The notes: generated by a model from the sequence alone, not told the origin. Positions 1,616 through 48,733 are shown, counted from the stretch's first letter. The stretch: 64,000 bases of DNA from an uncultured Hymenobacter sp. (GCA_964251335.1 CAXUKA010000001.1:20034-84033); one strand, 5' to 3'. Translations and numbers: made by a program.

Positions 1616-2824
1616 ATGGAAGAGACTACGCACGCACCGGGCCAGGGCCTGAGCCGCCGGGCCGTTTTGAGTGGACTGGTGCCGGCGCTGGCCGTGGCCG
1701 GCACATCGGCAGCCTGGGCCAGCGCTGCGCCCGTGGCTAGCCCCCCGGCGGCGCTGGGCCGGGGCACGTTCCCGGGCCTCATCACCCGCGAAAAAGAGCC
1801 GATGAACCTGGAGCTGCCCTTTCCCACGCTGGAGGACCGGCTGGTGCCCAACAATCGCTTCTACGTGCGCAGCCACTTCCACATTCCCACGATAGAGGCG
1901 GCGAGCTGGCAGCTCAGCATCGAGGGCGAGGTGCGAAACACCTTGAAAATCAGCTACGACGAGCTGCGCAAAATGCCTTCTAAAACCGTGACGGCTACCC
2001 TGGAGTGCGCCGGCAACGGCCGCGCCCGGCTAGCCCCTAAGGTCAAGGGCCTGCTCTGGGAGCAGGGCGGCGTGGGCAATGCCACCTGGACCGGCGTGCC
2101 CCTCTCGGCGCTGCTGGAGCGGGCCGGCGTGAAGCCGGGGGCCGTGGAAATCATCTTCGAGGGCACCGACCAAGGCGAAGTCACGGAAGAGCCCAAGTCG
2201 CCGGGTGCCATTCATTTTGCCCGCAGCCTGCCGCTGGCCAAGGCCCGCCAGCCCGAGGTGCTGGTGGCCTACCTCATGAACGGCCAGCCCCTGCCGCCCG
2301 AGCACGGCTTCCCGGTGCGGCTGGTGGTGCCCGGCTGGTACGGCATGGCCTCGGTGAAGTGGCTCAGCAAAATCATGGTGAGCGCCGTGCCCTACGACGG
2401 CTACTGGCAAACGCTGGAATACGCTTACTGGAAGCGCGAGCGCGGCCTGCCCACCCTCACGCCCGTGACGGAAATGCTGGTAAAAGCCGAAATAGCCCGC
2501 CCCGCGCTGCACGAGGAAGTACCCGCCGGCCAGCCCTACCGCGTGTACGGCGCGGCCTGGACGGGCGAGAGCGAGGTCACCCGCGTGGAAGTTAGCACCG
2601 ACAACGGCGGCAGCTGGCAGCCCGCCCGGCTGCTCGAAGCCGCCGTGCCTTTTGCCTGGCGCTTCTGGGAGTTCAGCTGGACGCCGCCCACTGCGCCGGG
2701 CCGCTACACCCTGCAAGCCCGCGCCACCGACCGCGCCGGCCACACCCAGCCCACCGCCCACGACCCCGACCGCCGTACCTACATGGTCAATAAAATCGGG
2801 GCCGTGGAGGTAGTCGTGCCCTAA
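1616..2824 (+). CDS. Sulfite-oxidase-family molybdopterin oxidoreductase (SorA-like, periplasmic)
   Basis: Tat-like leader (SRRAVLSGLVPALAVAG). The Moco cysteine motif TATLECAGNGR is present. It also has FPVRLVVPGWYGMASVKWL and a C-terminal dimerisation-type domain. Confidence 0.85.
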   Translation: MEETTHAPGQGLSRRAVLSGLVPALAVAGTSAAWASAAPVASPPAALGRGTFPGLITREKEPMNLELPFPTLEDRLVPNNRFYVRSHFHIPTIEAASWQLSIEGEVRNTLKISYDELRKMPSKTVTATLECAGNGRARLAPKVKGLLWEQGGVGNATWTGVPLSALLERAGVKPGAVEIIFEGTDQGEVTEEPKSPGAIHFARSLPLAKARQPEVLVAYLMNGQPLPPEHGFPVRLVVPGWYGMASVKWLSKIMVSAVPYDGYWQTLEYAYWKRERGLPTLTPVTEMLVKAEIARPALHEEVPAGQPYRVYGAAWTGESEVTRVEVSTDNGGSWQPARLLEAAVPFAWRFWEFSWTPPTAPGRYTLQARATDRAGHTQPTAHDPDRRTYMVNKIGAVEVVVP

Positions 2825-2846
2825 AGTCAGCTCCGCTACTCCCCCC

Positions 2847-2884
2847 AAAGGCCCCTGCCGCATCCTGCGCTAGGGGCCTTTTTG
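2847..2884 (+). terminator. Rho-independent terminator after the SorA-like gene
   Basis: Stem aaaggcccct / aggggccttt with a 15-nt loop, followed by tttgg. Confidence 0.6.
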
Positions 2885-2932
2885 GTGCTAGATAAGACCC
2901 GCGCCCCGGCCGCAGTAGCGCAGCACAAGCGC

Positions 2933-3208
2933 CTAGCTGGTCGCCTGCTGGCAGGCCGCTAGCTGCTGGCGGTGTGCGCGAAAGCGCCATAAGCCCACCG
3001 CCAGCACCACGGCCGCCACGGCCAGGGCCGTGTAGCCCAGCCGCCCGCCCCGCTCGGGGTGAAACTGAATGAGGGCCAGCCCAAAGCCTACCAGCGCCAG
3101 GCTGGTGCGCACATAGGTCAGCAAGGTGCGCTCGTTGGCCAGGCGAGTGCGTTGCAGGGCTAGCCGGTCGGACAGGGCCAGCTGCGGGGAGGAAGTGGGG
3201 GTAGGCAT
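2933..3208 (-). CDS. DUF202/YidH-family small membrane protein
   Basis: LQRTRLANERTLLTYVRTSLAL motif plus two hydrophobic helices. Confidence 0.7.
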   Translation of the reverse strand: MPTPTSSPQLALSDRLALQRTRLANERTLLTYVRTSLALVGFGLALIQFHPERGGRLGYTALAVAAVVLAVGLWRFRAHRQQLAACQQATS

Positions 3209-3220
3209 CCAGAAAAGAGG

Positions 3221-3883
3221 CTACGCCAGCGTCACCGAATCGCCCGGCTCGGCTAGGTGCAGAAACACGATGTTGTGCTTCTTAAAATAGGGCTCATAAT
3301 TGTCGTAGCGCTGCTGCACGAAAAAGGGCTTGAGGTACCCGTCGTGCACCGGCAAAATCTGCTGGGGCCGCATCTTCAAGGCAAAATCGGCCACTACCAG
3401 CTCCGTGAGGAAGGGCGCGGTAACGGGCAGAATCAGCAACTCTACCCCCGCAAACTGGAGCAGGTTTTCGACGAAGGAATCGGCCGGGTTCAGCACACGG
3501 CCGTTAACCAGCCAGGCCGTCATTTGGGGCAGCGGGCTGTCCAGAATGGCCTCGTGCCGCACTGGCAGGGCTTGCAGCTGAAACGCGCCCCGGTCGAGCG
3601 GGCCTTCCTCGTGGATTTGCACGGCTAGCCCCTGCTGCTTCAGCTTGGCGGCCACTTCGCCATTGGAAATAATAATGGCTCCGCTGCGCTCCACGATGCG
3701 CTGGAGGGCGTCCACATCGAGGTGGTCGGGGTGGTCGTGGGTGATGATGACCGTGGCCACGTCCCTGAACACGTCGGGCTGCACCAGCCCTTCGATGAAA
3801 GAAAACTTACCGGGGTCGAACAGTAGTTGCTGGCCGTTTAGCTCAAACAGCAGGCAGGAGTGGATATACTTGGTAATGCGCAT
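3221..3883 (-). CDS. MBL-fold metallo-hydrolase
   Basis: ITHDHPDHLD metal-binding motif. I took the start at the internal Met (MRITKYIHSCLLFE) because the longer ORF overlaps the upstream gene. Confidence 0.8.
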   Translation of the reverse strand: MRITKYIHSCLLFELNGQQLLFDPGKFSFIEGLVQPDVFRDVATVIITHDHPDHLDVDALQRIVERSGAIIISNGEVAAKLKQQGLAVQIHEEGPLDRGAFQLQALPVRHEAILDSPLPQMTAWLVNGRVLNPADSFVENLLQFAGVELLILPVTAPFLTELVVADFALKMRPQQILPVHDGYLKPFFVQQRYDNYEPYFKKHNIVFLHLAEPGDSVTLA

Positions 3884-16172: not shown

Positions 16173-17225
16173 ATGTTCGCCCACTTATCCATTCCCCTTT
16201 TGCTACTTGCCTTCGCGGCGGCCGGGGCGGCCGTCTGGGTGGCCGGCGTTTACCTTGCCAACGCTACCTCGGTGCTGGCCAAGCGCTTCGGACTAGGGCA
16301 GGCGCTGGGCGGCTTGCTGCTGCTGGCGGTGGTCACCAACTTGCCCGAGCTGGCCATCACAGTCAGCGCGGCCCTGAGCCAGCACCTGGAATTAGCCATC
16401 GGTAACATCTTGGGTGGCATTGCGATGCAGACGCTAGTGCTGGTGGTGCTCGACGTGTTTGGCCTGGGCAAAAAAGCGGCCCTCACCTACCAGGCCGCTT
16501 CGCTGGTGCTGGTACTGGAAGGCGTACTGGTGCTGGCCGTGCTGGCGGCCGTGCTGGTAGGCAGCCAGCTGCCAGCCGCCCTTATCGTGGCCCGCATAAC
16601 CCCGGCGGGCCTGCTCATCTTGGGGCTCTGGGTAGTGGGCCTATGGCTGATTGGCAAAGCGCAAAAGGGGCTACCCTGGCAGGCGCACGACGCGGCCCCG
16701 GCTGGCAGCCCGCCGCCCAAGCCAGCGGCTCTGGCCCAGTCAACGCCCCCGGCCAGCACCTGGCGCACGGGGCTGGTGTTCCTGGCTGCGGCCCTCGTGA
16801 CGCTGGTGGCGGGCGTGGTGCTGGAGCGCAGCGGCGACGCGCTGGCCACGCATTGGGGCTTGAGCGGGCTGCTGTTTGGGGCCACGGTGCTGGCGGCAGC
16901 CACCTCGCTGCCCGAGGTTTCGACCGGCCTGGCGTCCATGAAAGCGGGCGAATACCAGCAGGCCATCAGCGATATTTTTGGGGGCAATGCCTTTTTGCCG
17001 GTGCTGTTTCTGGTGGCCAGCGCGCTCTCGGGCCAGGCCGCGCTGCCCCACGCCGGCAAGGCCGACCTCTATCTCACGGGCCTGGGCATGCTGCTCACCT
17101 GCGTGTACGTCTACGGGCTGGTTTTCCGGCCGCAGCGGCAGGTGGCCCGCATGGGCCTCGACTCGCTGGTAGTACTCGGGTTGTATGCCCTAGGTATGCT
17201 GGGACTGTTGGCTATCAGTCCCTAA
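16173..17225 (+). CDS. CaCA-family cation/Ca2+ exchanger-like membrane protein
   Basis: Two alpha-repeat-like segments (NLPELAITVSAAL...GNILGGIAMQTLVL and SLPEVSTGLASM...FGGNAFLPVLFL). Confidence 0.7.
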   Translation: MFAHLSIPLLLLAFAAAGAAVWVAGVYLANATSVLAKRFGLGQALGGLLLLAVVTNLPELAITVSAALSQHLELAIGNILGGIAMQTLVLVVLDVFGLGKKAALTYQAASLVLVLEGVLVLAVLAAVLVGSQLPAALIVARITPAGLLILGLWVVGLWLIGKAQKGLPWQAHDAAPAGSPPPKPAALAQSTPPASTWRTGLVFLAAALVTLVAGVVLERSGDALATHWGLSGLLFGATVLAAATSLPEVSTGLASMKAGEYQQAISDIFGGNAFLPVLFLVASALSGQAALPHAGKADLYLTGLGMLLTCVYVYGLVFRPQRQVARMGLDSLVVLGLYALGMLGLLAISP

Positions 17226-17234
17226 CGAATATTA

Positions 17235-17951
17235 GTGCCCTCCTCACCGCCCCACCCCATGCCCGACCTCGTATTGCTGCGCCACGGCGAAAGCACCGCT
17301 AATTTAGCCAACGTATTCACCGGTTGGACCGATGTGAACCTCACCCCGCAGGGCGTGGCCGAAGCCCACCGCGCCGGCCAGCTGCTACGCCAGCACGGCT
17401 TCCGCTTCGACGTGGGCTACACTTCCCTGCTCAAGCGCACCATCAAAACAATGGCTATCGTGCTGGAAGAGCTGGACCTGCTTTGGATTCCGGTGCAGAA
17501 AACCTGGCGGCTCAACGAGCGTTTTTACGGAGCGCTGCAAGGCCAGAACAAGGCCGAGGCCGAAACTCAGTATGGGGCCGAACAGGTGCTTAAGTGGCGG
17601 CGCGACCCCTACGCCCACCCGCCCGCCATCACGCCCGCCGACCCCCGCTACCCCGGCCGCGACCCGCGCTACCAGCACCTCACCGACCGCGAATTGCCCC
17701 TGACCGAGAATCTGAGCGAAACCCTGGCCCGCGTACTCCCTTTCTGGACCGAGACGGTCATGCCCGCCCTGCGCCAGCAGCAGCGCGTCATCGTGTGCGC
17801 CCACGGCAACAGCCTGCGCGCCCTAGTGGAGTACATCGACAAGCTCACCGACGAGCAGGTGACCCAGCTCGACATCCTGACCGGCGTACCGATGGTGTAC
17901 CAGCTCAACGATAACCTGGAGCGCGTGGGCCACTACCTGCTCACGGAGTAG
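17235..17951 (+). CDS. gpmA: 2,3-bisphosphoglycerate-dependent phosphoglycerate mutase
   Basis: LVLLRHGESTANLANVFTGWTDVNLT, ERFYGALQG and CAHGNSLRAL motifs. The start could instead be the second Met (MPDLV). Confidence 0.9.
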   Translation: MPSSPPHPMPDLVLLRHGESTANLANVFTGWTDVNLTPQGVAEAHRAGQLLRQHGFRFDVGYTSLLKRTIKTMAIVLEELDLLWIPVQKTWRLNERFYGALQGQNKAEAETQYGAEQVLKWRRDPYAHPPAITPADPRYPGRDPRYQHLTDRELPLTENLSETLARVLPFWTETVMPALRQQQRVIVCAHGNSLRALVEYIDKLTDEQVTQLDILTGVPMVYQLNDNLERVGHYLLTE

Positions 17952-19124: not shown

Positions 19125-19224
19125 GCCAGGTAAAGAGGAATTTACCTCAACGGGAAAAAATAAAGCCGGGTTTTTCGGTCCTTCCGGCAACACGCTAGTT
19201 GACGCCCCGTATACTTGCCCCGAA

Positions 19225-19290
19225 ATACGGTGATGGATTTCCACCGCGAACCGCCGGAGCTTTTGTTCCGCGCTGATGATTCCTACGAGA
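19225..19290 (+). promoter_or_regulatory. Fluoride riboswitch (crcB RNA motif)
   Basis: GGTGATGGATTTCCACC-gcg-AACCGCC-GGAGC-tttt-GTTCCG-CG-CTGATGATTCCTAC. P1 is GGTG/CACC. P3 is CGGAGC/GUUCCG with a UUUU loop. A GGAUU/AUUCC pseudoknot has one U-U mismatch. The conserved GAUGG, AACCGCC, CUGAUGA and CCUAC blocks are all present, about 40 nt upstream of a CLC-F gene. Confidence 0.8.
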
Positions 19291-19328
19291 CGGCCAGCCG
19301 CTGACGCTGTGCCGAGTAGTTCATCCTA

Positions 19329-20651
19329 GTGTTCGCCGCCATGCCGTTCCGTGCCGTTTATTCGCGCCTCGTGCCCGCCCGTTTGCGGGCTTTCTCCCCC
19401 ACCCCGACGGTTGCGTTCGTGCTGCGCTGGCTGCTGCTGGCCAGCCTGGTCGGCGCGCTGGCTGGCACCGCTTCGGCGGGCTTTCTGGTAAGTTTGGAAG
19501 AGGTGACGGCTTGGCGCGAAGCGCACCCGTGGGCACTGGCCCTGCTGCCCCTGGGGGGCCTGCTGGTGGGGTTGGCCTACCTCCAGTTCGGCAACCGGGT
19601 GGTGAAGGGCAACAACCTCATTCTGGACGAAATCCACGCCCCCAGCGAAGTAATCCCGCTGCGGCTCGTGCCATTGGTGCTGGGAGGTACGCTGCTCACG
19701 CACCTGTTTGGCGGCTCGGCGGGCCGCGAGGGCACGGCCGTGCAGATGGGCGGGGCGCTGGCCGACCAGCTCTCGCGCTGGCTGCCCCGGCGCGAGCGGC
19801 ACCTGCTGCTTATTGCAGGCATGAGCGCGGGATTCGCCTCGGTGTTCGGCACGCCGCTGGCGGGGGCGGTGTTTGGGCTGGAAGTGTTTTTGCTGGGCTC
19901 GATGCGCTACGAGGCCATTTTGCCCAGCTTTCTGGCCGCCGTGGTGGCCGATGTGGTGACCCGGGCCTGGGGCGTGGGTCACACGCAGTACCCCGAGCTG
20001 GCGGCCGTGCCGCTCACGGCCCTGGGGCTGGGCTGCACGCTGCTGGCGGGGGCGCTGTTTGGGCTCACGGCTCGCGGGTTTGCTACGCTCACCCACTTTA
20101 TAAGTAAGCAGTTTGCGCGCATCGCCTATCCCCCGCTGCGGCCGGTGGTGGGCGGCGTGCTGGTGGCGGCTACCATGTGGGCGCTGGGCACGATGCGCTA
20201 CGCCGGCCTGGGGGTGCCCGTGATTGTGGAAGCCTTTCAGCACCCGCTGGGCATCCAGGATTTTGCCTGGAAGCTGGCGCTCACGGCCCTCACGCTGGGC
20301 GCGGGCTTCAAGGGTGGCGAGGTCACGCCGCTGTTTTTCATCGGCGCAGCGCTTGGGTCGGCGCTGGCTCCGGTGCTGCCGCTGCCGGTGGCCCTGCTGG
20401 CGGGCATGGGCTTCGTGGCCGTGTTCAGCGGGGCGGCCAACACGCCGCTGGCCTGCCTCTTTATGGGGCTGGAGCTGTTTGGCACGCACGCGGGCATCTA
20501 CCTGGGCGTGGCCTGCGTGGTGGCCTATTTGTTTTCGGGCCACAGCGGTATTTATACTGCCCAGAGAGTGGGCCACCCCAAGCACCCGCTGCTGGGCCGC
20601 CACCTCGGCCGCCGGCTGGGCGAGCTGCACCAGGCGGCGCGGCAGCCCTAG
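19329..20651 (+). CDS. CLC-F type fluoride/proton antiporter (EriC-F, N-T subclade)
   Basis: GNNLI replaces GSGIP. GREGT is present (Thr after the gating Glu). GEVTP replaces GxFxP. The riboswitch lies upstream. Confidence 0.85.
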   Translation: MFAAMPFRAVYSRLVPARLRAFSPTPTVAFVLRWLLLASLVGALAGTASAGFLVSLEEVTAWREAHPWALALLPLGGLLVGLAYLQFGNRVVKGNNLILDEIHAPSEVIPLRLVPLVLGGTLLTHLFGGSAGREGTAVQMGGALADQLSRWLPRRERHLLLIAGMSAGFASVFGTPLAGAVFGLEVFLLGSMRYEAILPSFLAAVVADVVTRAWGVGHTQYPELAAVPLTALGLGCTLLAGALFGLTARGFATLTHFISKQFARIAYPPLRPVVGGVLVAATMWALGTMRYAGLGVPVIVEAFQHPLGIQDFAWKLALTALTLGAGFKGGEVTPLFFIGAALGSALAPVLPLPVALLAGMGFVAVFSGAANTPLACLFMGLELFGTHAGIYLGVACVVAYLFSGHSGIYTAQRVGHPKHPLLGRHLGRRLGELHQAARQP

Positions 20652-20700
20652 CCCCTCGGGCCACTCCCAGTATTCTTTCCTCTCTTACTGCCTGCTCGTG

Positions 20701-21303
20701 ATGCTCCATCACCTTCAACTGCTGGATACGCGCCTACTGCTGCTGGCCAACGGCCACCACACCCCATTCTGGGATGCGGTGCTGTGGTGGGCGAGCCAGA
20801 CGTTTACCTGGCTGCCCTTCTATGCCGCGCTGCTGGCCGTACTGGTGGGCAGCTTCGGCCGGCGGGCCTGGCTGCTGGTGCCGCTGATTGCCGTGCTCAT
20901 CCTGGCCAGCGACCAGCTGGCCTCGGGCCTGCTCAAGCCCTGGGCGCACCGCCTGCGCCCCAGCCACGAGCCGGGGCTGGCGGGGCAGCTGCACCTGCTG
21001 CACGGCTACCGGGGCGGCACCTACGGCTTCGTGTCGTCGCACGCCGGCAACGTGTTCGCGCTGGCTTTTTACTTGTTGTTCACCGCCCGGCACCGGCTGC
21101 CGTGGCTGGCCGGGGTGCTGTTTCCGTGGGCACTGCTGGTGGCCTACAGCCGGGTGTACCTGGGCGTGCACTACCCCTCCGACGTGCTGGCACCCGTCCT
21201 GTTGAGCATCCCCCTGGCTTATGGCGTGAGTCGCCTCTACGCCTGGGGGGCCGCGCGCTGGCTGCCGGTTGCTGCTACCACCCCTATTCTCCCCACTGCC
21301 TGA
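20701..21303 (+). CDS. PAP2-family phosphatase (membrane)
   Basis: KPWAHRLRPS, SSHAGN and SRVYLGVHYPSDV motifs. The ATG at 20701 lies 50 nt after the CLC-F stop. Confidence 0.8.
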   Translation: MLHHLQLLDTRLLLLANGHHTPFWDAVLWWASQTFTWLPFYAALLAVLVGSFGRRAWLLVPLIAVLILASDQLASGLLKPWAHRLRPSHEPGLAGQLHLLHGYRGGTYGFVSSHAGNVFALAFYLLFTARHRLPWLAGVLFPWALLVAYSRVYLGVHYPSDVLAPVLLSIPLAYGVSRLYAWGAARWLPVAATTPILPTA

Positions 21304-21773
21304 TGCCCAGTCCACTGCCCGTTCCCCCAGCCGGGGAGCCACTCCTCTCGCCTACTCACCAACGCGTGCTTAGCTCGCTGGTGCTGCTGCTCGAAGACCG
21401 CCTCACCGCCTTGCAGGCCCTGCTAGGGCCGCACCCGCCCGGCATCGCCCAGGTATGGGCCGATGACTTGAGTACCGCCGAGCACGCCGGCCTCACCGCC
21501 ACCGCCGAGGCTTTTCGCGCCGAACTGGCGGCCCTGCACGCCACTTACCGCCTCGATACGCAGCCCCGCTCGCCCCGCCACGAAGTGGCTTTTCGCGCCG
21601 CCCAGCTCTGGGAGATTCTGGGCGATGCGCCGGCCGCCAAGTTCAGCGGCTACGGGGCCCTACCCCCAACCCTGGCGCCCGACTGGGATGCCCGCGTGCA
21701 GTGCCTCACTGCCCTGGCCAACCAGCTGCTAGCGCAGGCAAACGCGCCCGATTCGGTCACTACGCCCGCCTGA
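21303..21773 (+). CDS. Hypothetical helical protein (156 aa), translationally coupled to PAP2
   Basis: TGATG overlap with the PAP2 stop. I recognise no motif. Confidence 0.5.
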   Translation: MPSPLPVPPAGEPLLSPTHQRVLSSLVLLLEDRLTALQALLGPHPPGIAQVWADDLSTAEHAGLTATAEAFRAELAALHATYRLDTQPRSPRHEVAFRAAQLWEILGDAPAAKFSGYGALPPTLAPDWDARVQCLTALANQLLAQANAPDSVTTPA

Positions 21774-21821
21774 CCCTTGTACATCAGACTTTCCCCTTAC
21801 CCTTTTTCCCTCAAACCCCCC

Positions 21822-23120
21822 ATGAAAATCACCTCGCTCACCGCCCTCGAAGTCCTCGACTCCCGCGGCAACCCCACCGTGGAAGCGGATATTACCCTCG
21901 AAGGCGGGGCCACCGGCCGCGCCCTGGTGCCGGCCGGCGCCAGTACCGGCGAAAAAGAAGCCGTGGAGCGGCGCGACAACGACCCGAAGCGCTACGGCGG
22001 CAAGGGCGTGCAACACGCCGTAGCCAACGTGCAAGGCGAAATCGCCCAGGCGCTGCTGGGCCAAGAGCTGGCCGACCAGGCCGACCTCGACCACCGCCTG
22101 ATTGCCCTGGACGGCACCGATAACAAGTCGCGCTTAGGGGCCAACGCCATCCTGGGCGTGTCGATGGCCTACGCCCGCGCCCTGGCCGCCGCCACTGGCC
22201 AGCCGCTCTACCGCCAGCTGGCCGACCAGGCCAGCTACGTGCTGCCCGTGCCCTGCCTGAACGTGCTCAACGGCGGCCGCCACGCCGACAACAACGTGGA
22301 TTTTCAGGAATTTATGATTGCCTCGCACAACGCGCCCACCTTTGCCGAGTCCATCCGCATGAGCGTGGAGACGTTTCACGCCCTCAAGGCCCTGCTCAAG
22401 CAGAAGGGCTACTACACGGGGGTAGGCGATGAGGGCGGCTTTGCCCCCAACCTGAAGTCGAACGAGGAGGCCGTGGAGCTGCTGCTCGAAGCCATCACGC
22501 AGGCGGGCTACCGGCCGGGTACTGACATCTCGCTCTGCCTCGACCCGGCGTCGAGTGAGCTGTGGGAAAAAGGCCAGGGCGGCCAGCCGGGCCAGTACCG
22601 CTTGTTCAAATCGACCAAGCAAACCTTTACTTCCGAGCAATTCAATGACCTATGGGTGAGCTGGGTGAATCAGTACCCCATCATCCTGCTCGAAGACGGC
22701 ATGGGCGAGGACGACTGGGCCGGCTGGCAGCTGCACACCAAGGCCTTGGGCAGTAAAATCGAGCTGGTGGGCGACGATATTTTCTGCACCAACCCGGCCA
22801 TTCTGCAAGCCGGTATCGACCAGCACATTGCCAACTCAGTGCTCATCAAGCTCAACCAAATCGGCACCGTCACCGAAACCCTGGAAACCGTGCGCCTGGC
22901 CCAGGCCAACGGCTATAATCAGTTCGTGTCGCACCGCTCGGGCGAAACCGAAGACACCTTCGTGGCCGACCTCACGGTGGCCACCGGCGCGGGTCACCTC
23001 AAAACCGGCAGCGGTTCGCGCTCCGAGCGCATCGCCAAGTTCAACCAGCTGCTGCGCATCGAGCGCGAGCTGGGCAGCGCGGGGCGCTTTGCGGGCATTA
23101 AAGCATTTAAGAACCAGTAG
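21822..23120 (+). CDS. eno: Enolase (phosphopyruvate hydratase)
   Basis: [39 protein letters not shown] and [12 protein letters not shown] motifs. Confidence 0.95.
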
Positions 23121-23191
23121 CTTAGGCAGCCGGCGGAGCTGGCCCTAGGGGGCGGCCGGGCTGGCTGGCCACCTTTTCAATGTAGCCGCTT

Positions 23192-24415
23192 ATGGACACT
23201 TCCCGTTTGCCCCCGGCCCCGCCGGCCGCCCTGCGCACGGCCACGCGCTTCGTGCTGCTGCTGGGCGTAGTCAGCCTGTTTGCCGACATGACCCACGAGT
23301 CCGCCCGCAGCATCAACGGGCCGTTTCTGGCCGGGCTGGGGCGCAGCAGCGTCACCATCGGCTGGGTGGCGGGCACGGGCGAGCTGCTGGGCTACGGGCT
23401 GCGCAGCGTGGCCGGCTACTTTGCCGATAAAACGCAGCGCTACTGGCTGATAACCTTCGTGGGCTACGCCCTGAACATGGCCTGCGTGCCCCTGCTGGCG
23501 CTGGCCGGCTACTGGCCGCTAGCAGTGGGCCTGATGGTGGCCGAGCGCGTGGGCCGGGCCATCCGCACGCCGGCCCGCGATGCCATGCTGGCCCACGGCA
23601 CGCAGCTCATCGGGCGGGGCTGGGGCTTCGGCATCTCGCAGGCGCTCGACCAGCTGGGGGCCACGCTGGGGCCGCTGCTGGTGGCGGCCGTGCTGCGCTA
23701 CCACCCGCGCGACTACCCCCTGGCCTACGGGCTGCTGGCCGGGCCGGCGGTGCTCACGCTGCTGGCGCTGGCCGTGGCCCACCGCCAGTACCCGCACCCC
23801 GAGCAGCTCGAAGCTCCGGTGGCGGCCCCCATGGGGGCAAGCCCGGCGGGCTACCCGCGCCGCTTCTGGGCCTACCTACTGGCGGCCAGCCTGGTAGCGG
23901 CGGCCTACGTCGATTTTCCGCTCATCGCCCTGCACTTCGCCCAGCGCCACGTGCTGGCCAGCGCCACCATTCCGGTGTACTACGCCGTGGCCATGGGCAG
24001 CGACGCGCTGGCCTCGCTCGGGTTGGGCCGGCTCTTCGACCGGCGCGGGCCGGTGGCCGTGACGGTGGGCGTGCTGGCCGGGGTGCTGTTCGCGCCGCTC
24101 GTGTTCTGGGGCGGGCCGGCGGCGGCGCTGGGCGGCATGGTGCTTTGGGGCATTGGGCTGGCGGCACAGGAGTCGGTGCTCAAGGCCGAGGTGGCGCGGC
24201 TGCTGCCCCCGGCGCGGCGGGCGCAGGCCTTCGGGCTGTTCGACACGGGCTTCGGCGTGGCCTGGTTTGCGGGCAGCGTGGCCCTGGGCTACCTCTACGA
24301 TTATTCCCTGGCGGGCCTGGTGGCGTTTTCGGTGCTGGGCCAGGTGCTGGGCGTGGCCCTGTTTACCTGGCTGGGCCGCCGGCCGGCCGCTGGCGCGGCT
24401 TTGGAAGGTGTTTAA
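23192..24415 (+). CDS. MFS transporter
   Basis: About 12 TM helices and an MFS loop motif (AERVGRAIRTPARDAM). Confidence 0.8.
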   Translation: MDTSRLPPAPPAALRTATRFVLLLGVVSLFADMTHESARSINGPFLAGLGRSSVTIGWVAGTGELLGYGLRSVAGYFADKTQRYWLITFVGYALNMACVPLLALAGYWPLAVGLMVAERVGRAIRTPARDAMLAHGTQLIGRGWGFGISQALDQLGATLGPLLVAAVLRYHPRDYPLAYGLLAGPAVLTLLALAVAHRQYPHPEQLEAPVAAPMGASPAGYPRRFWAYLLAASLVAAAYVDFPLIALHFAQRHVLASATIPVYYAVAMGSDALASLGLGRLFDRRGPVAVTVGVLAGVLFAPLVFWGGPAAALGGMVLWGIGLAAQESVLKAEVARLLPPARRAQAFGLFDTGFGVAWFAGSVALGYLYDYSLAGLVAFSVLGQVLGVALFTWLGRRPAAGAALEGV

Positions 24416-24421
24416 GAATTG

Positions 24422-24470
24422 AAACAAGGCGGTCATGCTGAGCGAAGCCGAAGCACGACCGCCTTGTTTT
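24422..24470 (+). terminator. Hairpin (13-bp stem) after the MFS gene, a possible attenuating terminator or REP-like element
   Basis: aaacaaggcggtc ...22-nt loop... gaccgccttgttt followed by tc. The loop plus stem contains gtcatgctgagcgaagccgaagca, reminiscent of the arm of the 17989 repeat. Confidence 0.5.
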
Positions 24471-24541
24471 CAGGTTTCTAATAGGCTAGCAGGCAGGTTA
24501 ACTCAAGCAATTCCCTTCTCACTTCACCCAATTTAACCAAC

Positions 24542-25312
24542 ATGAAAATCGCGCTTTTTAGTGATGTGCACGGCAACCTACCGGCCCTGGAGGCGGTGCT
24601 GGCCGACATCGAGGCCCAGCAGGTGGATGTGTGCTACTGCCTGGGCGACCTGGTGGACTTCGCGCCCTGGCCCAACGAGGTGATTGACCTGCTGCGCCGC
24701 CGCAACGTGCTCGTCATCCAGGGCAACCACGATGCGGGCATCGGGGCGCACCGGGCCGATTTCCCCTACTCGTACCGCACGGCGGCCGAGGAGGCGGCCG
24801 GCCGCCAGGCCATTGCCTGCACCAACGCCGCTATCACCGACCGCAACCGCGCCTACCTGCGCACCCTGCCCCACAATCTGCTGCTCGATGCCGGCCAGCA
24901 GCCGCCCTACCTGCGCGTGCTGCTCACCCACGGCAGCCCGGCCGACGTGAACCAGTACATCACCCCCGACTACGACGCGGAGGGGATGCTGGAGCTGCTG
25001 GAAGAGTACGGGGCCAACATTCTGTGCATGGGCCACACCCACCGCCCCTACCACCGCGTGCTGGCCACCGCGCAAGCCAACCAGCCGGCCTTTAAGCACA
25101 CTATCAACGTGGGCTCGGTGGGCCAGCCCAAGGACGGCGACCCCCGCGCCACCTGGTGCCTGCTGGAGCTGACCGAGGCCAGCACGCTGGCCGCCGCCGA
25201 CTCGGTGCGGGTGCAGCACTACCGCGTGGCCTACGACCTGGCCCGCACGGTGGCCGCCATCCAGGCCAGCGCCATCCCCGGTTTGTATGCCGAGGCCCTG
25301 CCCCGCGCCTGA
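24542..25312 (+). CDS. Metallophosphoesterase (YfcE/MJ0936-like calcineurin-fold)
   Basis: FSDVHGN, GDLVDFAPWPNEV, GNHD and GHTHRPY motifs. Confidence 0.85.
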   Translation: MKIALFSDVHGNLPALEAVLADIEAQQVDVCYCLGDLVDFAPWPNEVIDLLRRRNVLVIQGNHDAGIGAHRADFPYSYRTAAEEAAGRQAIACTNAAITDRNRAYLRTLPHNLLLDAGQQPPYLRVLLTHGSPADVNQYITPDYDAEGMLELLEEYGANILCMGHTHRPYHRVLATAQANQPAFKHTINVGSVGQPKDGDPRATWCLLELTEASTLAAADSVRVQHYRVAYDLARTVAAIQASAIPGLYAEALPRA

Positions 25313-25356
25313 GGCCCCTGGGACGGTTTTTTGTTTTCCTCCTTTTCCCGTTTGCC

Positions 25357-25917
25357 ATGCCCACACTTCATCCCTGGCACGAGCTATCGCCCGGCCCCGA
25401 GGCCCCCGCCGTGGTGCGGGCCGTCATTGAGATTTCGCGCGGCAGCCGCTGCAAGTACGAGCTGGATAAGCCCAGCGGCCTGCTGGTGCTCGACCGGGTG
25501 CTGCACTCGGCCATGCGCTACCCCGCCAACTACGGCCTGATTCTGCAGACCTACTACCTCGACCACGACCCGCTCGACATCCTGGTGCTGTGCGCCGAAG
25601 ACCTGGTGCCGCTGGCTACCGTGCCGGCCCGCGTCATCGGCCTGCTGCACATGGAAGATACTGGCCTGCCCGACGATAAACTCATCGCCGTGGCCGACCG
25701 CGACCCCACCTTCGCTGGCCTCGCCGACGTGGCCGAGCTGCCGGCGGCCGTGCGCGAGGAAATCCAGGATTTCTTCGCCCAGTATAAGCGCCTGGAAAAC
25801 AAGCCCGTCACGACCCTGGGCTTCGCCGGCCGGGCGGCGGCCCTGGCCTGCGTGCGCGAAAGCCTGACGCGCTACCAGCAGCAGGTAGTGCCCACGCTGG
25901 CGGCGCGCCAGCCCTGA
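25357..25917 (+). CDS. ppa: Family I inorganic pyrophosphatase
   Basis: VIEISRGSRCKYELDK, YPANYGLILQT, DHDPLDILVL and DDKLIAV motifs. Confidence 0.9.
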   Translation: MPTLHPWHELSPGPEAPAVVRAVIEISRGSRCKYELDKPSGLLVLDRVLHSAMRYPANYGLILQTYYLDHDPLDILVLCAEDLVPLATVPARVIGLLHMEDTGLPDDKLIAVADRDPTFAGLADVAELPAAVREEIQDFFAQYKRLENKPVTTLGFAGRAAALACVRESLTRYQQQVVPTLAARQP

Positions 25918-25928
25918 CCTTTACGGAC

Positions 25929-25957
25929 GCGGCCCTGGGGTAGGGCCGCGCTTTTTA
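25929..25957 (+). terminator. Hairpin plus T-tract between ppa and crcB
   Basis: gcggccct-ggggt-agggccgc followed by gcttttta. The crcB ATG starts at 25959. Confidence 0.5.
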
Positions 25958-25958
25958 T

Positions 25959-26336
25959 ATGCTTCGACTTCTGAGTATTATTGCCCTGGGCGGGGCCGTG
26001 GGCAGCGTGGGCCGCTACCTCTTGCAGCTGCTGGTGGCCCGGCACTTCGTGCACCCGTTTCCGCTGGGCACGCTGCTGGTCAACGTGTTGGGCTGCCTGC
26101 TCATTGGCTTTTTCTACGCGGCGGCCGAGCGGGGTACTATCGGCTCGCCCGAGCTGCGGCTGCTGCTCACTACGGGCTTCTGCGGGGGCTTCACCACGTT
26201 TTCGACCTTCTCCTACGAAACCATCAGCATGCTCACCGACGGCGAATATGGCTACGTGGCCCTCTACGTGGCCGGCAGCGTGCTGCTGGGGCTGGGGGCC
26301 ACGTTTGCGGGCGTGGTGGCGGTGCGCTTTTTATAA
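25959..26336 (+). CDS. crcB: Fluoride channel CrcB/FluC
   Basis: GGAVGSVGRYLL, GTLLVNVLGCLLIG and TGFCGGFTTFSTFSYE motifs, 4 TM helices. Confidence 0.9.
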   Translation: MLRLLSIIALGGAVGSVGRYLLQLLVARHFVHPFPLGTLLVNVLGCLLIGFFYAAAERGTIGSPELRLLLTTGFCGGFTTFSTFSYETISMLTDGEYGYVALYVAGSVLLGLGATFAGVVAVRFL

Positions 26337-26362
26337 ACTTCTCTTCTTAACCCTTTTATCGC

Positions 26363-26698
26363 ATGGCTACTTTGCAACCGGCGCAGCTGCTGCGCCTCTA
26401 CGTGAGCGAGCAGGACAAGCACCAGCACCAGCCGCTCTACGAGGCCCTGGTGTACGCGGCGCGGCAGGCGGGCCTGTCCGGGGCCACCGTCACCAAGGGC
26501 GTGCTAGGCTTCGGGGCGCAGGGCCAGGTGGAGTCGGCCAAGCTGCTGACCCTGGCCGAAAACCTGCCCCTGGTGCTGGACTTCGTGGATAGCCCGGCCT
26601 CCATCGCCCGCTTTCTGCCCGAGGTCGAGCGCCTGTTCAGCGAGGCGGGCAGCGGTGGGCTACTCACGCTGACCGAGGTACAAGCCGCGCATTATTAA
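26363..26698 (+). CDS. DUF190 domain protein (crcB-associated family)
   Basis: LRLYVSEQDKHQHQPLYEALVYAARQAGLSGATVTKGVLGFG...LPLVLDFVD pattern. Confidence 0.8.
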   Translation: MATLQPAQLLRLYVSEQDKHQHQPLYEALVYAARQAGLSGATVTKGVLGFGAQGQVESAKLLTLAENLPLVLDFVDSPASIARFLPEVERLFSEAGSGGLLTLTEVQAAHY

Positions 26699-26708
26699 GT
26701 ATTGACCA

Positions 26709-27101
26709 ATGGCTCCTACCCCTCCCCTCCCCCCCACCGTGCGCGCGCTAGGTGAGCTGCGCATCTACCTCACCCAGGCCGACAAGCACGCCGCGCCGGG
26801 CCTGCGCGGCCGCCTCTTCCCCGACCCGCTGGCCCACGCGCTGGTCGATAAGGCGCACGCTTTCGGCATCTTACAGGCCACTACCCACACCAGCGGCTAC
26901 GGCTACGTGCTGGGCGGGGCCGTGCGCGCCCGCCACCTCGAAGTGGAAGCGGGCCAGCTGGCCCTGTGCGTGGAACTGCTCGACGAGCGGGCCCGGCTAC
27001 TCGCTTTCTGCCAGCAGCACCAGGAGCTGCTGCGGGGCAAAGTCGTGGTATTTCGCCCTGTTGAGCAGTGGGCTATTGATGGTGCGACTGGCCAGTCGTA
27101 A
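26709..27101 (+). CDS. Second, more divergent DUF190-like protein
   Basis: LRIYLTQADKH...PLAHALVDKAHAFGILQATTHTSGYGY...LALCVELLD runs parallel to the first copy. Confidence 0.6.
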   Translation: MAPTPPLPPTVRALGELRIYLTQADKHAAPGLRGRLFPDPLAHALVDKAHAFGILQATTHTSGYGYVLGGAVRARHLEVEAGQLALCVELLDERARLLAFCQQHQELLRGKVVVFRPVEQWAIDGATGQS

Positions 27102-27622: not shown

Positions 27623-28375
27623 ATGCTGACTAAAAGTGACTTAGCAGCTATTCGACAGCAGCTAGTAGTAGTAACCTGCTCTTCGGATGAGGATTTTATA
27701 GGGGCTGCCAATCATATTCTGCCAGGTTTTCAATTCGTGAAGCTCGCTTCTCAGTTACGAGAAGCTGCCGAGTTCTTTGGGTTTGCGTGGGAGCAGGCTG
27801 ACTGGTATCTCTACAATGGCAGTGGCAACGGTTCCATACTCTACCTGTATTACCAAGCCTCCACTATGTGGGGCTCTATCAGCCTGGCCCGCGACATATG
27901 TTACCGGTCAGAGGGCCTCGTGGCTGACCATGCGTATTTAAATCTTCCGGTTGAGCTTCAGGGAAATGGCTTGTCGAAATACCTAAATTCCGTATGTTAT
28001 GAGCAGTACAGGCAAGCCGGAGTTGTAAAAATCGAGGTATATGCGACCTTGGACGCGGGTGGCTACGTTTGGGCCAGAGCAGGCTTTGCCGCTACCAAAC
28101 GGCCTGAGGTCGAAGCTATAGTAGCGCTCGCCTACGAAAAAACTACTCAAAATCAAACCACTCGGCTTACTCATGCGTTATGCGATGTACTGCAAAAGGA
28201 AGTTAGCTTGCACTACGGCCTGCAACCAGACAAGCCCTTTCCGATATGGCGCTGGGCAACGCTCGGTTTTGGCGAAGAGCTTTTACTTAAAACGAGTTGG
28301 CACGGCGAACTGGACTTGACCGATGAAGTGCAAGTGCGTATATTTAAGAAATATTTGGGCTCCGAGCAATCATGA
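27623..28375 (+). CDS. Hypothetical 250-aa protein, possibly with a GNAT-like fold
   Basis: AT-richer than its surroundings. LNLPVELQGNGLSKYL (Q/RxxGxG-like) is followed by VKIEVYATLDAGGYVWARAGF. The assignment rests on motif resemblance only. Confidence 0.55.
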   Translation: MLTKSDLAAIRQQLVVVTCSSDEDFIGAANHILPGFQFVKLASQLREAAEFFGFAWEQADWYLYNGSGNGSILYLYYQASTMWGSISLARDICYRSEGLVADHAYLNLPVELQGNGLSKYLNSVCYEQYRQAGVVKIEVYATLDAGGYVWARAGFAATKRPEVEAIVALAYEKTTQNQTTRLTHALCDVLQKEVSLHYGLQPDKPFPIWRWATLGFGEELLLKTSWHGELDLTDEVQVRIFKKYLGSEQS

Positions 28376-40540: not shown

Positions 40541-40954
40541 TCAGAAAATCAAGACCAGCGTGCCGCCGATAATCATTGCCGCGCCCAGGCCAGTGTGCCA
40601 GGTCAGTCTCTCGCCCAAAAACACTACCGACAGCACAATGGCAATGGCCACGCTGAGCTTATCGACCGGGGCCACCTGCGACACTTTGCCCAGCTGCAAG
40701 GCCCGGAAGTAGAATATCCACGACAGTCCCGTGGCCACGCCCGACAAGCCCAGGAAAATCAGGTTGGTGCGCGTGAGCAGGCCAATCTGGTCGAGCCCGC
40801 CCCGGAAATAGACAATGCCCCAGGCCAGCACCAGGATAACCACCGTGCGGATGGCCGTAGCCAGGTTAGAGTCGACACCCTTGATGCCAATTTTGGCCAG
40901 AATGGCCGTGAGCGCCGCAAACACGGCCGAGAGCAAGGCATAAATCCACCACAT
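40541..40954 (-). CDS. Single-EamA-domain (4-TM, DMT superfamily) small transporter
   Basis: 137 aa. It begins MWWIYALLSAVFAALTAILAKIGIKGVDSNLATAIR. A paralog lies at 53114..53533. Confidence 0.7.
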   Translation of the reverse strand: MWWIYALLSAVFAALTAILAKIGIKGVDSNLATAIRTVVILVLAWGIVYFRGGLDQIGLLTRTNLIFLGLSGVATGLSWIFYFRALQLGKVSQVAPVDKLSVAIAIVLSVVFLGERLTWHTGLGAAMIIGGTLVLIF

Positions 40955-40967
40955 AGTAAGCTAATGA

Positions 40968-44602: not shown

Positions 44603-45375
44603 AGAAGCTGTTGGTGAGTATGATAAGGCGTCTGGTAACCGATGCTAGAGTGCAGGCGCTCGCGATTGTAGTAGTCAAAATAGTCGGCCACGCTGGCCTG
44701 CGCGTCGGCTAGGTCGGTAAAAACGGGCCGCTCGCGGCCTTCGAGTACCTCCGTTTTGAGGCGTGACCAGAGGCTCTCAGCTTGCGCATTGTCGTAGCAG
44801 TCACTGCGGCGGCTCTGCGAGCGGAGGGCCTGGTGGTCGTGGAGCAGCTTGCGGTACACCTTACCGCAAGCTGCTCACCGCGGTCGGAGTGGACAAGCAA
44901 GTCAGGTGTGGGTGGCTGAGCCCAAAAAGCGCGCTGCAAGGCGGTGGTAATCAACTCCTCCGGCATGGTGGCCATGACGTGCCAGCCCACCACCTGCTTG
45001 CTGACCATGTCCTGGTACGCGCACAGGTAGGCCCAGTTCCCATTGGCCAGTGGCAGGTAGGCGATATCGCTGACCCAGACCTGGTTAGCTTGCGTCGGCT
45101 TGGGCTGATTGAGTAGCCGGTTCGGCGCGCAGCGCAGCCCGTGGGTAGAGTCGGTGGTGCGTGGGGTGAAAGCCTTGGGCTGCAGCGCGTGCAGGCCCCG
45201 GCGGCGCATGGCCCCACGTAGGCGCTGCCGCCCGATGCAGTAGCTCTTGCGGCGCAAAGCGACCTGCAGCCGGCGCGTGCTGGTCATCGGCATATGGCGC
45301 TTTCGGGCGCGGCGCCGCGACATTGAGCAGTGCCGTACCGCTGGCGCGTGAGCATTGATAAACTCTGATAATCAT
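44564..45375 (-). mobile_element. Decayed IS3-family element: orfB (DDE/rve transposase) only, frameshifted, with orfA missing
   Basis: Two frames (44709..45323 and 44572..44859) together give QVWVSDIAYL (D), LLVHSDRG (D) and CYDNAQAESLW (E). The left end begins TGGTCTAG. The total length of under 0.9 kb is too short for an intact IS3. Confidence 0.75.
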
Positions 45376-45449: not shown

Positions 45450-46529
45450 TTAGCGATTGGTATACCAGCGGCGTCGAAACCAGAAGGCAACGTTTACCAG
45501 CGCAATCAGGGCCGGTACCTCAATCAGCGGCCCGATGACACCGGCAAAGGCTTGCCCCGAGTTGAGCCCGAACACGCCGATGGCCACGGCAATGGCCAGC
45601 TCGAAATTGTTGCCGGTGGCCGTGAAGGCGATGCTGGCATTTTCGGCGTAGTCGGCCCCGAGCCACTTGCCGGCCGCGAAGCTGAGCACGAACATGATGC
45701 CGAAGTAGAGGGCCAGCGGCAGGGCGATGCGCAGCACGTCGAAGGGAAGCCGCACGATGGTTTCGCCTTTCAAGCTGAACATGACCACGATGGTTAATAG
45801 CAAGGCAATTAAGGTAATTGGGCTAATGGCCGGAATGTACACCCGCTCGTACCACTCGTTGCCTTTGAGGCGGCGCAGGATGGTGCGCGAGAGAAAGCCC
45901 GCCGCGAAGGGGATGCCCAGGTAAATCAGTACACTCGGGGCAATGTCGCTCATGCGGAGGTTCACGGCGTAGCCTTTCAGGCCGAAGTGCGGGGGCAGGA
46001 CCGTGATAAAAAGCCAGGCCAGCACGGCGTAAAACAGCACCTGAAAGATGGAATTCAGGGCCACCAGGCCGGCCGCGTACTCGCGGCTGCCATCGGCCAG
46101 GTCGTTCCAGACCAGCACCATCGCGATGCAACGGGCGATGCCGATGAGAATCAGGCCCATCATGTACGCGGGCTTGTCGGGCAGCAGCCAAATGGCCAGG
46201 AAGAACATGAGCAGCGGGCCCACTAGCCAGTTCAGCACCAGCGACAAGCCGATGATGCGCGTGTTTTTAAAGACCGTGGGCAGCTGCTCGTACTTGACCT
46301 TGGCCAGTGGCGGGTACATCATGAGAATCAGGCCCAGGGCCAGCGGCACGTTCACCGTGCCCACCGAGAAGTAGTTCACGGCGTCGTTGATACCCGGCAC
46401 GAAGTAGCCCAGGGCCACCCCCAGGGCCATGGCCAAGAATATCCAGAGCGTCAGCCCCCGGTCGAGGCCCGAGAGCTTCTTTTGGGCAAGGGCCGTTGGG
46501 GGCGGCGTGGGGAGGGAGTGCGGAAGCAT
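45450..46529 (-). CDS. acr3: ACR3-family arsenite efflux transporter
   Basis: [36 protein letters not shown] and [12 protein letters not shown] motifs, 10 TM helices. Confidence 0.9.
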
Positions 46530-46547
46530 AGTTTTGAAAGAAAGAAG

Positions 46548-47045: not shown

Positions 47046-47057
47046 AGAACCAAGGGG

Positions 47058-47387
47058 TTAAGGACGAGGCCAGAACAGGATAATGCCGATGCCGATGAAG
47101 CAGACCAGGCCCCCGATGATGTCGAATCGGTCGGGCTTAAAGCCGTCCACGTACCAGGCCCAGGTAATCGACATGACCACGAACACGCCCCCGTACACGG
47201 CGTAGGTTTTGCCAAAAGAGGTCGTCTGCCAGGTCGCCACCCAGCCGTAGAGCACGAGCAGCACTGCCCCGAGTACCCCTGTCCACAGCGGCCGGTCGGC
47301 TTTCAGCCATTGCCAGAGCAAGTAGCCCCCCCCGATTTCGCAGAGGCCAGCCAGGAAGTAGAGGCCAAGGGTTTGCAGAGAATTCAC
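47058..47387 (-). CDS. ynfA: YnfA/UPF0060-family small membrane protein
   Basis: LCEIGGGYLLWQWLK, YAVYGGVFVVMSITWAWYVDGFKPDRFDIIG and overall length match E. coli YnfA. Confidence 0.8.
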   Translation of the reverse strand: MNSLQTLGLYFLAGLCEIGGGYLLWQWLKADRPLWTGVLGAVLLVLYGWVATWQTTSFGKTYAVYGGVFVVMSITWAWYVDGFKPDRFDIIGGLVCFIGIGIILFWPRP

Positions 47388-47401
47388 GAAGAAGCAATTA
47401 G

Positions 47402-48703: not shown

Positions 48704-48733
48704 AAAAAAGCGCTTTTAGTGAGATAGTTAGGG

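Follow-up and report, generated by a model that had tools for sequence, protein, structure and literature searches.

The six-gene operon ppaC-uspA-eno-gpmA-crcB-orf5249 of Enterobacter cloacae FRM is controlled by a riboswitch and gives two transcripts, with the upstream genes up about 100-fold and the downstream genes about 10-fold (PMC5533749). The genes crcB, CLC-F (eriC-F), enolase and pyrophosphatase are the classical associates of the crcB motif (PMC2864571, PMC11139923, PMC7266159), and a fluoride 'super-regulon' has been named in a review (PMC7266159). Multi-gene fluoride operons under riboswitch control and a broad super-regulon are already known (PMC5533749, PMC7266159, PMC2864571). 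The fluoride response includes the over-expression of inhibited enzymes and phosphatases, the riboswitch-linked phosphoesterases have been read as compensation for inhibited phosphoryl transfer, and further fluoride-resistance determinants exist according to the same review (PMC11139923). Understanding of fluoride resistance is confined to two exporter families and a few over-expressed target enzymes. Here, a 64-kb stretch of DNA from an uncultured Hymenobacter sp. was analysed; this whole stretch is referred to as the window. Hymenobacter is a soil-type bacterium of the Bacteroidota. A single fluoride riboswitch in the window is followed by ten genes on the + strand (19341-27101). We read this array as a Hymenobacter-specific consolidation of several fluoride super-regulon modules behind one riboswitch, a reading to which we assign a probability of about 0.7. 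Start codons were picked from the translations, the protein families were called with Pfam and NCBIfam and the riboswitch with Rfam; L-numbers denote the loci fetched for comparison. The features of the array are as follows.

19220-19292, + strand: fluoride riboswitch aptamer RF01734 (Rfam, 43.7 bits)
19246-19336, + strand: putative expression platform (minimum-free-energy fold, conservation)
19341-20651, + strand: CLC-F, 436 amino acids (aa); PF00654
20701-21303, + strand: PAP2 membrane phosphatase, 200 aa; PF01569
21303-21773, + strand: helical protein, 156 aa; no Pfam or NCBIfam match
21822-23120, + strand: enolase, 432 aa; TIGR01060
23192-24415, + strand: major facilitator superfamily (MFS) transporter, 407 aa; PF07690; first gene of the cassette
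24422-24434/24457-24469, + strand: hairpin 3' of the MFS gene, with 13-bp arms and a 22-nt loop, followed by TTGTTTT
24542-25312, + strand: metallophosphoesterase (MPP), 256 aa; PF12850 and PF00149
25357-25917, + strand: family I pyrophosphatase (PPase), 186 aa; PF00719; last gene of the cassette
25928-25950, + strand: terminator-like hairpin 5' of crcB, with a 10-bp stem, eight G-C pairs and T5
25959-26336, + strand: CrcB/Fluc, 125 aa; TIGR00494
26363-26698, + strand: DUF190 (PII-like) copy a, 111 aa; PF02641
26709-27101, + strand: DUF190 divergent copy b, 130 aa; PF02641

An initial annotation of the window had claimed ten co-directional genes in this order, spaced from a 1-nt overlap to 126 nt. 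The Pfam and NCBIfam assignments confirmed the order and the gene identities, and the computed gaps along the array (49, -1, 48, 71, 126, 44, 41, 26 and 10 nt) match the claimed spacing, ranging from -1 to 126 nt. The chance of nine successive same-strand neighbours is in itself ~0.2%, and families previously tied to fluoride account for six of the ten genes. The array is therefore far beyond chance. Comparison with the E. cloacae FRM operon showed the same type of layout, in which one RF01734 riboswitch heads a co-directional array with genes for a pyrophosphatase, enolase (eno) and crcB. An internal element lowering distal expression is seen in E. cloacae FRM as two transcripts and is predicted in the window from the hairpins. 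However, the window array has ten genes instead of six, both exporter classes and a family I PPase in place of ppaC. It adds two DUF190 genes and those for PAP2, MFS, MPP and the helical protein, and has no universal stress protein (USP). The gpmA gene is inside the E. cloacae operon, whereas the phosphoglycerate-mutase-like gene of the His_Phos_1 family near the window array (17235-17951, +) is located 5' of the riboswitch and, like a Na_Ca_ex transporter gene (16173-17225, +), outside its control. The platform in the window looks translational rather than terminator-based, and the window, unlike the E. cloacae operon, is known from sequence alone.

The grouping of all these modules behind one riboswitch and the presence of CLC-F and CrcB in one array appear to be new, Baker et al. 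(2012) not being among the literature covered. With the same limit, the recurrence of uncharacterised MFS, helical-protein and MPP family members, together with dynamin-like GTPases, appears to be new as well. The MFS, the helical family, the 256-aa MPP, PAP2 and the dynamin-like GTPase are not named as associates in the available literature, in which Baker et al. (2012) was not covered; some of these gene associations may be in that paper. The supplements of Weinberg 2010 contain nothing on the MFS, helical or MPP families (PMC2864571), and full-text searches for the fluoride riboswitch with major facilitator, metallophosphoesterase or dynamin returned nothing relevant. The MFS, the helical family and the 256-aa MPP are three widely distributed uncharacterised candidates for fluoride defence, which bears on the engineering of microbes tolerant of the fluoride freed in the degradation of organofluorine compounds and per- and polyfluoroalkyl substances (PFAS). 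A translational-looking platform heading a ten-gene array is, moreover, a useful case for the control of distal genes.

The aptamer is directly 5' of CLC-F, with the CLC-F ATG beginning 48 nt past its end. The match to RF01734 (gathering score 34, E=8e-9) covers model positions 1-64 of 64 and is the sole Rfam match in the window. A covariance model, R1, built in this analysis from 27 riboswitches, scores the aptamer at 66.4 bits and likewise finds only this copy in the window. The leader of CLC-F contains an alternative structure that competes with the aptamer. The 3' aptamer strand at 19275-19286, GAUGAUUCCUAC, pairs with 19316-19325 in the alternative hairpin, and the closing helix GCGAAC (19246-19251)/GUUCGC (19331-19336) stops 5 nt short of the CLC-F start codon. 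The alternative structure is kept in 11 Hymenobacter-type leaders, with compensatory changes in 8 of the 34 predicted pairs. No U-tract terminator was found in the window leader 3' of the aptamer or of the alternative structure, and the expression platform looks translational rather than terminator-based.

The distribution of the array was compared in the CLC-F loci of 80 species, with one genome per species. The nearest CLC-F is that of Hymenobacter ginkgonis (90% identity), which places the window in Hymenobacter. Just two of the species, H. ginkgonis (L003) and H. defluvii (L001), have a multi-gene version of the array, in which the riboswitch is followed by CLC-F, PAP2, the 156-aa protein, enolase, CrcB and two DUF190 genes; the MFS, MPP and PPase genes are absent from both arrays. 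The metagenome contig L083 has all ten genes with identities of 78-97%. Its CLC-F match (2161-3464) falls into two tblastn segments, 2161-2748 and 2778-3464, which may reflect a frameshift or an assembly error. These comparisons showed that the array consists of a seven-gene core and an MFS-MPP-PPase cassette set between enolase and crcB. The distance from the window is about the same for L003 and for L083, so that the cassette was gained or lost recently. A foreign origin of the cassette was also considered from its composition, and the GC content at third codon positions of the MFS and MPP genes (0.91-0.92 vs. 0.79-0.88 in the core) is not decisive. Seven other Hymenobacter (L005, L007, L009, L010, L011, L016 and L040) have CLC-F without a downstream array, which rules out conservation of the cluster across the genus; a riboswitch was detected in five of these seven loci. 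CLC-F and CrcB are together in one array in 5 of the 80 CLC-F loci. Judged from these gene orders, the array is a lineage-specific mosaic. The initial annotation had called it unusually complete, and it is indeed rich, with only two of the 80 species sharing the multi-gene version, but not unique, as L083 and the locus L096 described below have comparable arrays. The cassette is absent from the two closest named species, and the parts recur elsewhere in other orders.

Comparisons outside Hymenobacter showed that three of the proteins, the MFS, the helical protein and the MPP, are encoded repeatedly in the fluoride-riboswitch loci of unrelated bacteria, where the gene order varies. The four genes without an assigned fluoride role had been put forward as candidates for fluoride tolerance; recurrence with fluoride riboswitches is found for the MFS, the 156-aa family and the MPP, and PAP2 is seen in only one further array. 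By genomic context, the MFS and the helical family are strong candidates for members of fluoride loci, the MPP is a moderate candidate and PAP2 a weak one. In the metagenome locus L096 (Ga0207433_10000389), about 13 genes and two riboswitches are arranged as riboswitch-CLC-F-DUF190-CrcB-USP-riboswitch-MFS-helical protein-enolase-PPase-MPP-MPP-dynamin GTPase. The order in L103 is riboswitch-CrcB-DUF190-NhaP-USP-MFS-helical protein-enolase-PPase-MPP-MPP-dynamin, and the run from MFS to MPP-MPP is located 3 kb downstream of the riboswitch. The set shared by L096/L103 and the window comprises CLC-F, DUF190, CrcB, MFS, the helical protein, enolase, PPase and MPP. However, L096 differs from the window in the gene order, the two riboswitches, the tandem MPPs, the USP, the dynamin-like GTPase and the lack of PAP2. 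Because the protein identities to the window are only 24-69%, L096 and L103 are independent assemblies of the same parts. As in the super-regulon, related loci also show the published associates Na+/H+ antiporter, USP, MutS-like protein and HAD.

The MFS has more than 4,600 homologues that are 50-60% identical across phyla, spanning Bacteroidota, Ignavibacteria, Armatimonadota, cyanobacteria and proteobacteria, and many of its charged residues are invariant. It has no NCBIfam match and no PDB sequence match at E<=0.01, and a profile search against the PDB gave only NorA (E=0.25). An AlphaFold2 model (predicted local distance difference test score, pLDDT, of 88.6) and Foldseek confirm the MFS fold. 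The Foldseek ranking among MFS structures is nearly flat, with the carboxylate carriers SfMCT and OxlT marginally first, and the likeness of the modelled fold to carboxylate carriers is a weak lead. A sample of 80 metagenome loci of the MFS family (L083-L162, 0.62 Mb) was searched with R1. The search gave 34 riboswitches across 23 of the 80 loci. A riboswitch lies 5' of the MFS gene on the same strand in 20 loci, at a distance of 88-4882 nt. Upstream sequence of at least 3 kb is available for 42 loci, and 18 of these (43%) have such a riboswitch. Enolase is beside the MFS family in 19 of the 80 loci by tblastn and in 24 by clustering. Among named bacteria, a riboswitch heads eno-MFS (49% identity)-dynamin-like GTPase in Noviherbaspirillum sp. 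ST 5-3 (L035), a Chroococcidiopsis plasmid has the order riboswitch-crcB-DUF190-MFS, and a plasmid island of Burkholderia cenocepacia combines five riboswitches with crcB, a histidine phosphatase, CLC, MFS and MutS.

Several of these loci are dense in riboswitches. Four riboswitches are located within 7 kb of the Noviherbaspirillum chromosome (L035 2900-14700), beside a Tn3 transposase, and head HIT, eno-MFS-dynamin, CrcB-EamA and CLC-F-DUF190. Five are located within 8 kb of a conjugative B. cenocepacia plasmid from a blood isolate (L167 1200-9300). The most frequent neighbours of the MFS are dynamin-like GTPases (Dynamin_N, some with DUF6062), whose 35 genes are spread over 25 loci; a locus often has two of them, and they are often located within riboswitch-headed arrays. 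Examples are L096 11194-12882, L103 763-2709 and 11175-12890, and L131 4131-5966. A literature search found no paper tying dynamin-like GTPases to fluoride.

The 156-aa helical protein has no Pfam and no NCBIfam match, and a single-sequence search gave only 13 Hymenobacter-type relatives. Weak tblastn matches beside MFS genes elsewhere gave a family alignment with a conserved K/R-G-Y-G motif. A profile search returned 74 hypothetical proteins without a Pfam domain, and an exhaustive profile search returned 1,550 clusters (50% identity), with E<=1e-10 for 862; these overturned the idea that the gene is a Hymenobacter orphan. With a hidden Markov model, the family was found in 14 of the 80 MFS loci, beside MFS, enolase, both or a dynamin-like GTPase, and in none of the CLC-only loci. 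In all six contexts looked up, one of them in an NCBI record labelled Chloroflexi, the helical gene is immediately 5' of enolase, often overlapping it; the MFS gene is just upstream in three of them and His_Phos_1 follows enolase in five. All six are convergent to a MutS_V-MutS_V-CrcB-DUF190/CBS operon, and a riboswitch is present within the fetched DNA in two of the six neighbouring crcB operons. Because no riboswitch was found within the fetched 14 kb of L174-L177, the helical-protein/enolase pair of these loci is tied to crcB by neighbourhood only. In L132 the helical gene comes directly after the riboswitch. The AlphaFold2 model of the helical protein (pLDDT 84.6) consists mainly of four long helices, and a fold search with it against the PDB gave no match better than E=2.3. 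The enolase scores 609 bits with TIGR01060 (cut-off 300) and has both Enolase_N and Enolase_C; no second enolase was found in the window. Enolase and PPase are classical fluoride-inhibited enzymes. In the metagenome contig L164, a molybdenum-cofactor riboswitch RF01055 (5775-5916) is located 2 kb 5' of a helical-protein/enolase pair, with ArsP and ArsR genes further upstream.

The MPP scores 79 bits with PF12850 and its metal-binding motifs are intact. With the YfcE subfamily TIGR00040 it scores 49.3 bits, under the cut-off of 56.25, so that it is placed at the level of the superfamily only; its nearest neighbour among solved structures, 3RQZ, is of unassigned function. One of the tandem MPPs of L096 is 39% identical to it over 253 residues. 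A full-length paralogue (47% identical) is located in the window at 47402-48208 (-), inside an arsenic operon, and at least a dozen Hymenobacter plasmids carry an annotated copy of the same arsR-DUF6428-MPP-GNAT-ACR3 operon. On cyanobacterial plasmids (L172 4456-9837 and L173 6128-10420), distant relatives of the MPP are in tandem or beside an unnamed open reading frame (ORF). Their neighbours are paralogues of FolE, a COG0523-type GTPase, ThrRS and HemB-II, and the cluster resembles a zinc-starvation (zinc-sparing) regulon. The occurrence of the family in fluoride arrays, the arsenic operon and zinc-type clusters suggests that the MPP is a metalloenzyme for whose function alternative copies provide a back-up under differing ionic stresses.

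The PPase matches PF00719 with 164.6 bits over profile positions 1-153 of 153. It is under all NCBIfam equivalog cut-offs, the best being PRK01250 (139.9 bits vs. 200), and is a divergent member of family I. By eye, it has DHDPLD where family I usually has D-[SGDN]-D-P-x-D. The divergence could bear on its fluoride sensitivity. The PAP2 protein scores 68 bits with PF01569, and its catalytic motifs are intact, with KxxxxxxRP, SxH and SRxxxxxHxxxD seen by eye. Its scores with the undecaprenyl-diphosphatase/PgpB equivalogs (36.9, 36.6 and 27.2 bits vs. cut-offs of 229, 250 and 261) place it, as far as the profiles go, in the superfamily only. PAP2 is kept in L001, L003 and L083, and both in the window and in H. 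defluvii its stop codon shares 1 nt with the start codon of the helical gene. Elsewhere, L129 has the order riboswitch-NhaP-enolase-MFS-HAD-PAP2 (PAP2 30% identical), and two further loci have PAP2 on the opposite strand or 5' of the riboswitch.

Both exporter classes claimed in the initial annotation are present. CLC-F and Fluc are fluoride exporters. The CLC scores 225 bits with PF00654 and far under the cut-offs of the ClcA and ClcB equivalogs. Its best PDB match is 6D0J, a CLC-type fluoride/proton antiporter (E=1e-64), and no PDB sequences other than 6D0J, 6D0K and 6D0N, all of the CLC-F antiporter, match at E<=1e-10. The CLC-F subclades are set by N or M in helix D and by T or V after GREG (PMC4113899). 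The window CLC bears GNNLI, GREGT and GGEVTP, aligned to GMNLV, GREGV and GGEVTP of 6D0J, and is on these residues a predicted F-/H+ antiporter of the CLC-F type in the N-T subclade. CrcB scores 102 bits with TIGR00494 (cut-off 80.45) and 113 bits with PF02537. The two DUF190 copies score 104.2 bits (a) and 32.1 bits (b) with PF02641, against a gathering score of 23.4, and the divergent copy b is kept in L001, L003 and L083.

These features can be joined into a candidate mechanism. Fluoride, as an Mg-F complex, would bind the aptamer and capture the GAUGAUUCCUAC strand. With this strand captured, neither the alternative hairpin nor the GCGAAC/GUUCGC helix would form to occlude the region 5' of the CLC-F start. 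CLC-F would then be translated, and transcription would reach the distal genes through translation-coupled protection from polarity. The platform has no terminator, and control of the distal genes therefore needs polarity. The two hairpins, one 3' of the MFS gene and one 5' of crcB, would be partial attenuators that set the gene ratios, as in E. cloacae FRM. Cytosolic fluoride would be lowered by export through the CLC-F antiporter and through the Fluc channel, the latter with its two DUF190 partners. Enolase, PPase and probably MPP, as additional or substitute copies of phosphoryl-transfer enzymes that are sensitive to fluoride, would restore flux. PAP2, which is metal-independent, may be a fluoride-insensitive back-up. 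The published compensation reading of riboswitch-linked phosphoesterases fits the MPP, and also PAP2 as a metal-independent enzyme. The enolase-centred module, with the helical gene 5' and the MFS gene 3' of enolase, would handle the consequence of an enolase block, most likely by moving a small organic anion across the membrane.

The single riboswitch may control all ten genes as a candidate operon. The array may instead be a resistance island of separately expressed units that are co-located without forming one operon. Only CLC-F, or the genes through enolase/MFS, would then answer the riboswitch, and MPP-PPase and crcB-DUF190-DUF190 would be constitutive or expressed from other promoters. 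We consider this arrangement possible though, on balance, unlikely. Both hairpins named in the initial annotation, at 24422 and 25929, can be read in the sequence and would favour it. The hairpin with T5 at 25928-25950 runs into CTTTTTATATG, in which the ATG is the crcB start codon, and the second hairpin (24422-24469) stands in the largest gap of the array, the 126 nt 5' of the MPP gene. The insertion or deletion of the cassette between close relatives points in the same direction, as do the modules that carry their own riboswitches elsewhere (two in L096, four in L035 and five in L167) and the finding that only about 15% of Fluc genes are under riboswitch control (PMC11139923). However, crcB begins 8 nt after the hairpin, and because of this no promoter fits between them. 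Any crcB promoter must therefore be located 5' of the hairpin, with its transcripts reading through it. No strict Bacteroidota TAnnTTTG (-7) box was found in the cluster, where the sole near-match is TATACTTG at 19210-19217, and a sigma-70 scan gave consensus matches inside genes and no convincing site in the intergenic regions. The window has no second riboswitch by Rfam or R1, and in the E. cloacae operon the distal genes are induced by fluoride despite an internal attenuator (PMC5533749). Terminator-like matches did not exceed their count in shuffled sequence. Both H. defluvii (L001) and H. ginkgonis (L003) have a hairpin between enolase and crcB, and the window and L083 have theirs at the cassette junctions. 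The sequences of these hairpins are unrelated, and the one at the MFS-MPP junction of L083 also differs from that of the window. The hairpin loop 24432-24459 was considered as a repeat element and is present in a single copy in the window.

Further points weigh against the consolidation of the modules behind one riboswitch. The hairpin at 25928-25950 with its T5 has the canonical shape of an intrinsic terminator and could stop most transcripts before crcB, and the MFS and MPP genes are separated by both a hairpin and the 126-nt gap. No promoter was identified 5' of the riboswitch or inside the array, and the polarity needed with a terminator-free platform is assumed. Many MFS-family members have no nearby riboswitch, and some are found in metal-resistance contexts. 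The MPP family is also found in arsenic operons and zinc-paralogue clusters, and its link may be to phosphate-mimic or metal stress in general. The case for PAP2 comes from the Hymenobacter lineage and one other locus (L129). The roles suggested here for the MFS, the helical protein, the MPP and PAP2 are inferences.

The four unassigned genes would have no part in fluoride tolerance if they were passengers brought in by genome rearrangement. PAP2 is in only one array outside the Hymenobacter lineage, MFS and MPP family members are also found in contexts without fluoride genes, and the 156-aa protein looks orphan-like in the single-sequence search (13 matches). However, the profile search (1,550 clusters) removes this impression, and a 1-nt overlap joins the 156-aa gene to PAP2 in both the window and H. 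defluvii. In Bacteroidota-like, Chloroflexi, cyanobacterial and betaproteobacterial records, members of the MFS, helical and MPP families (24-55% identity) accompany riboswitches and the enolase, PPase and crcB genes, in varying order. The passenger explanation is very unlikely as a whole, and the evidence already speaks against it for the MFS, the helical protein and the MPP. A different role for the enolase-MFS-helical module is suggested by the GAPDH-ArsJ system, in which a glycolytic gene is beside an MFS permease gene in a locus for resistance to a phosphate-mimic anion (PMC5930303, PMC9601151). By analogy, the module would be an active detoxification system rather than an enzyme back-up, with the MFS exporting a fluoride-containing or fluoride-trapped phospho-metabolite or the accumulating 2-phosphoglycerate. 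We regard this as distinctly improbable. In its favour, the enolase and MFS genes are 71 nt apart in the window and near each other in about 20 further loci, with the helical gene inserted between them or next to them. The nearest solved folds, SfMCT and OxlT, are carboxylate transporters that rank marginally ahead of other MFS proteins. However, the fold ranking is nearly flat, the lack of an NCBIfam match leaves no evidence for any named transporter family, and loci with MFS and without enolase exist. The comparison with GAPDH-ArsJ is an analogy only, as the window enzyme is enolase, the MFS has no NCBIfam match and no exported adduct is known. We know of no fluoride adduct made by enolase. 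It is correspondingly doubtful that the conserved trio of the MFS, the ~145-aa helical protein and enolase, which is often joined across phyla by a histidine phosphatase and dynamin-like GTPases, would be a third fluoride-defence mechanism beside Fluc and CLC-F. At the same low odds, the MFS would remove a fluoride-trapped or fluorinated phospho-metabolite or piled-up phosphoglycerate, and the helical protein would act on enolase. The consolidation of fluoride modules behind one riboswitch is the reading that we retain.

The arsenic operon of the window (45450-49087, - strand) has the order arsR-DUF6428-MPP-GNAT-ACR3 and the following genes.

48734-49087, - strand: ArsR
48245-48703, - strand: DUF6428
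47402-48208, - strand: MPP paralogue
46548-47045, - strand: GNAT
45450-46529, - strand: ACR3/SBF

An ORF with an integrase core domain (rve, 44709-45323, -) adjoins this operon, which hints that the ars region is or was mobile. A second CLC gene (49351-50715, +) is divergent from the operon; its motifs GRESAP and GGLFTP indicate a canonical CLC without the CLC-F signature. The first ORF past the fluoride cluster (27623-28375, +) has no Pfam match and a GC content of 0.49, compared with 0.64-0.73 in the cluster genes, and may be foreign DNA that marks the cluster boundary. Two small EamA-type genes of the window (40547-40960, - and 53117-53539, -) are 54% and 45% identical to the EamA gene of Noviherbaspirillum (L035), which follows crcB behind a fluoride riboswitch. 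In H. defluvii, a 146-aa EamA gene is located directly 5' of the riboswitch.

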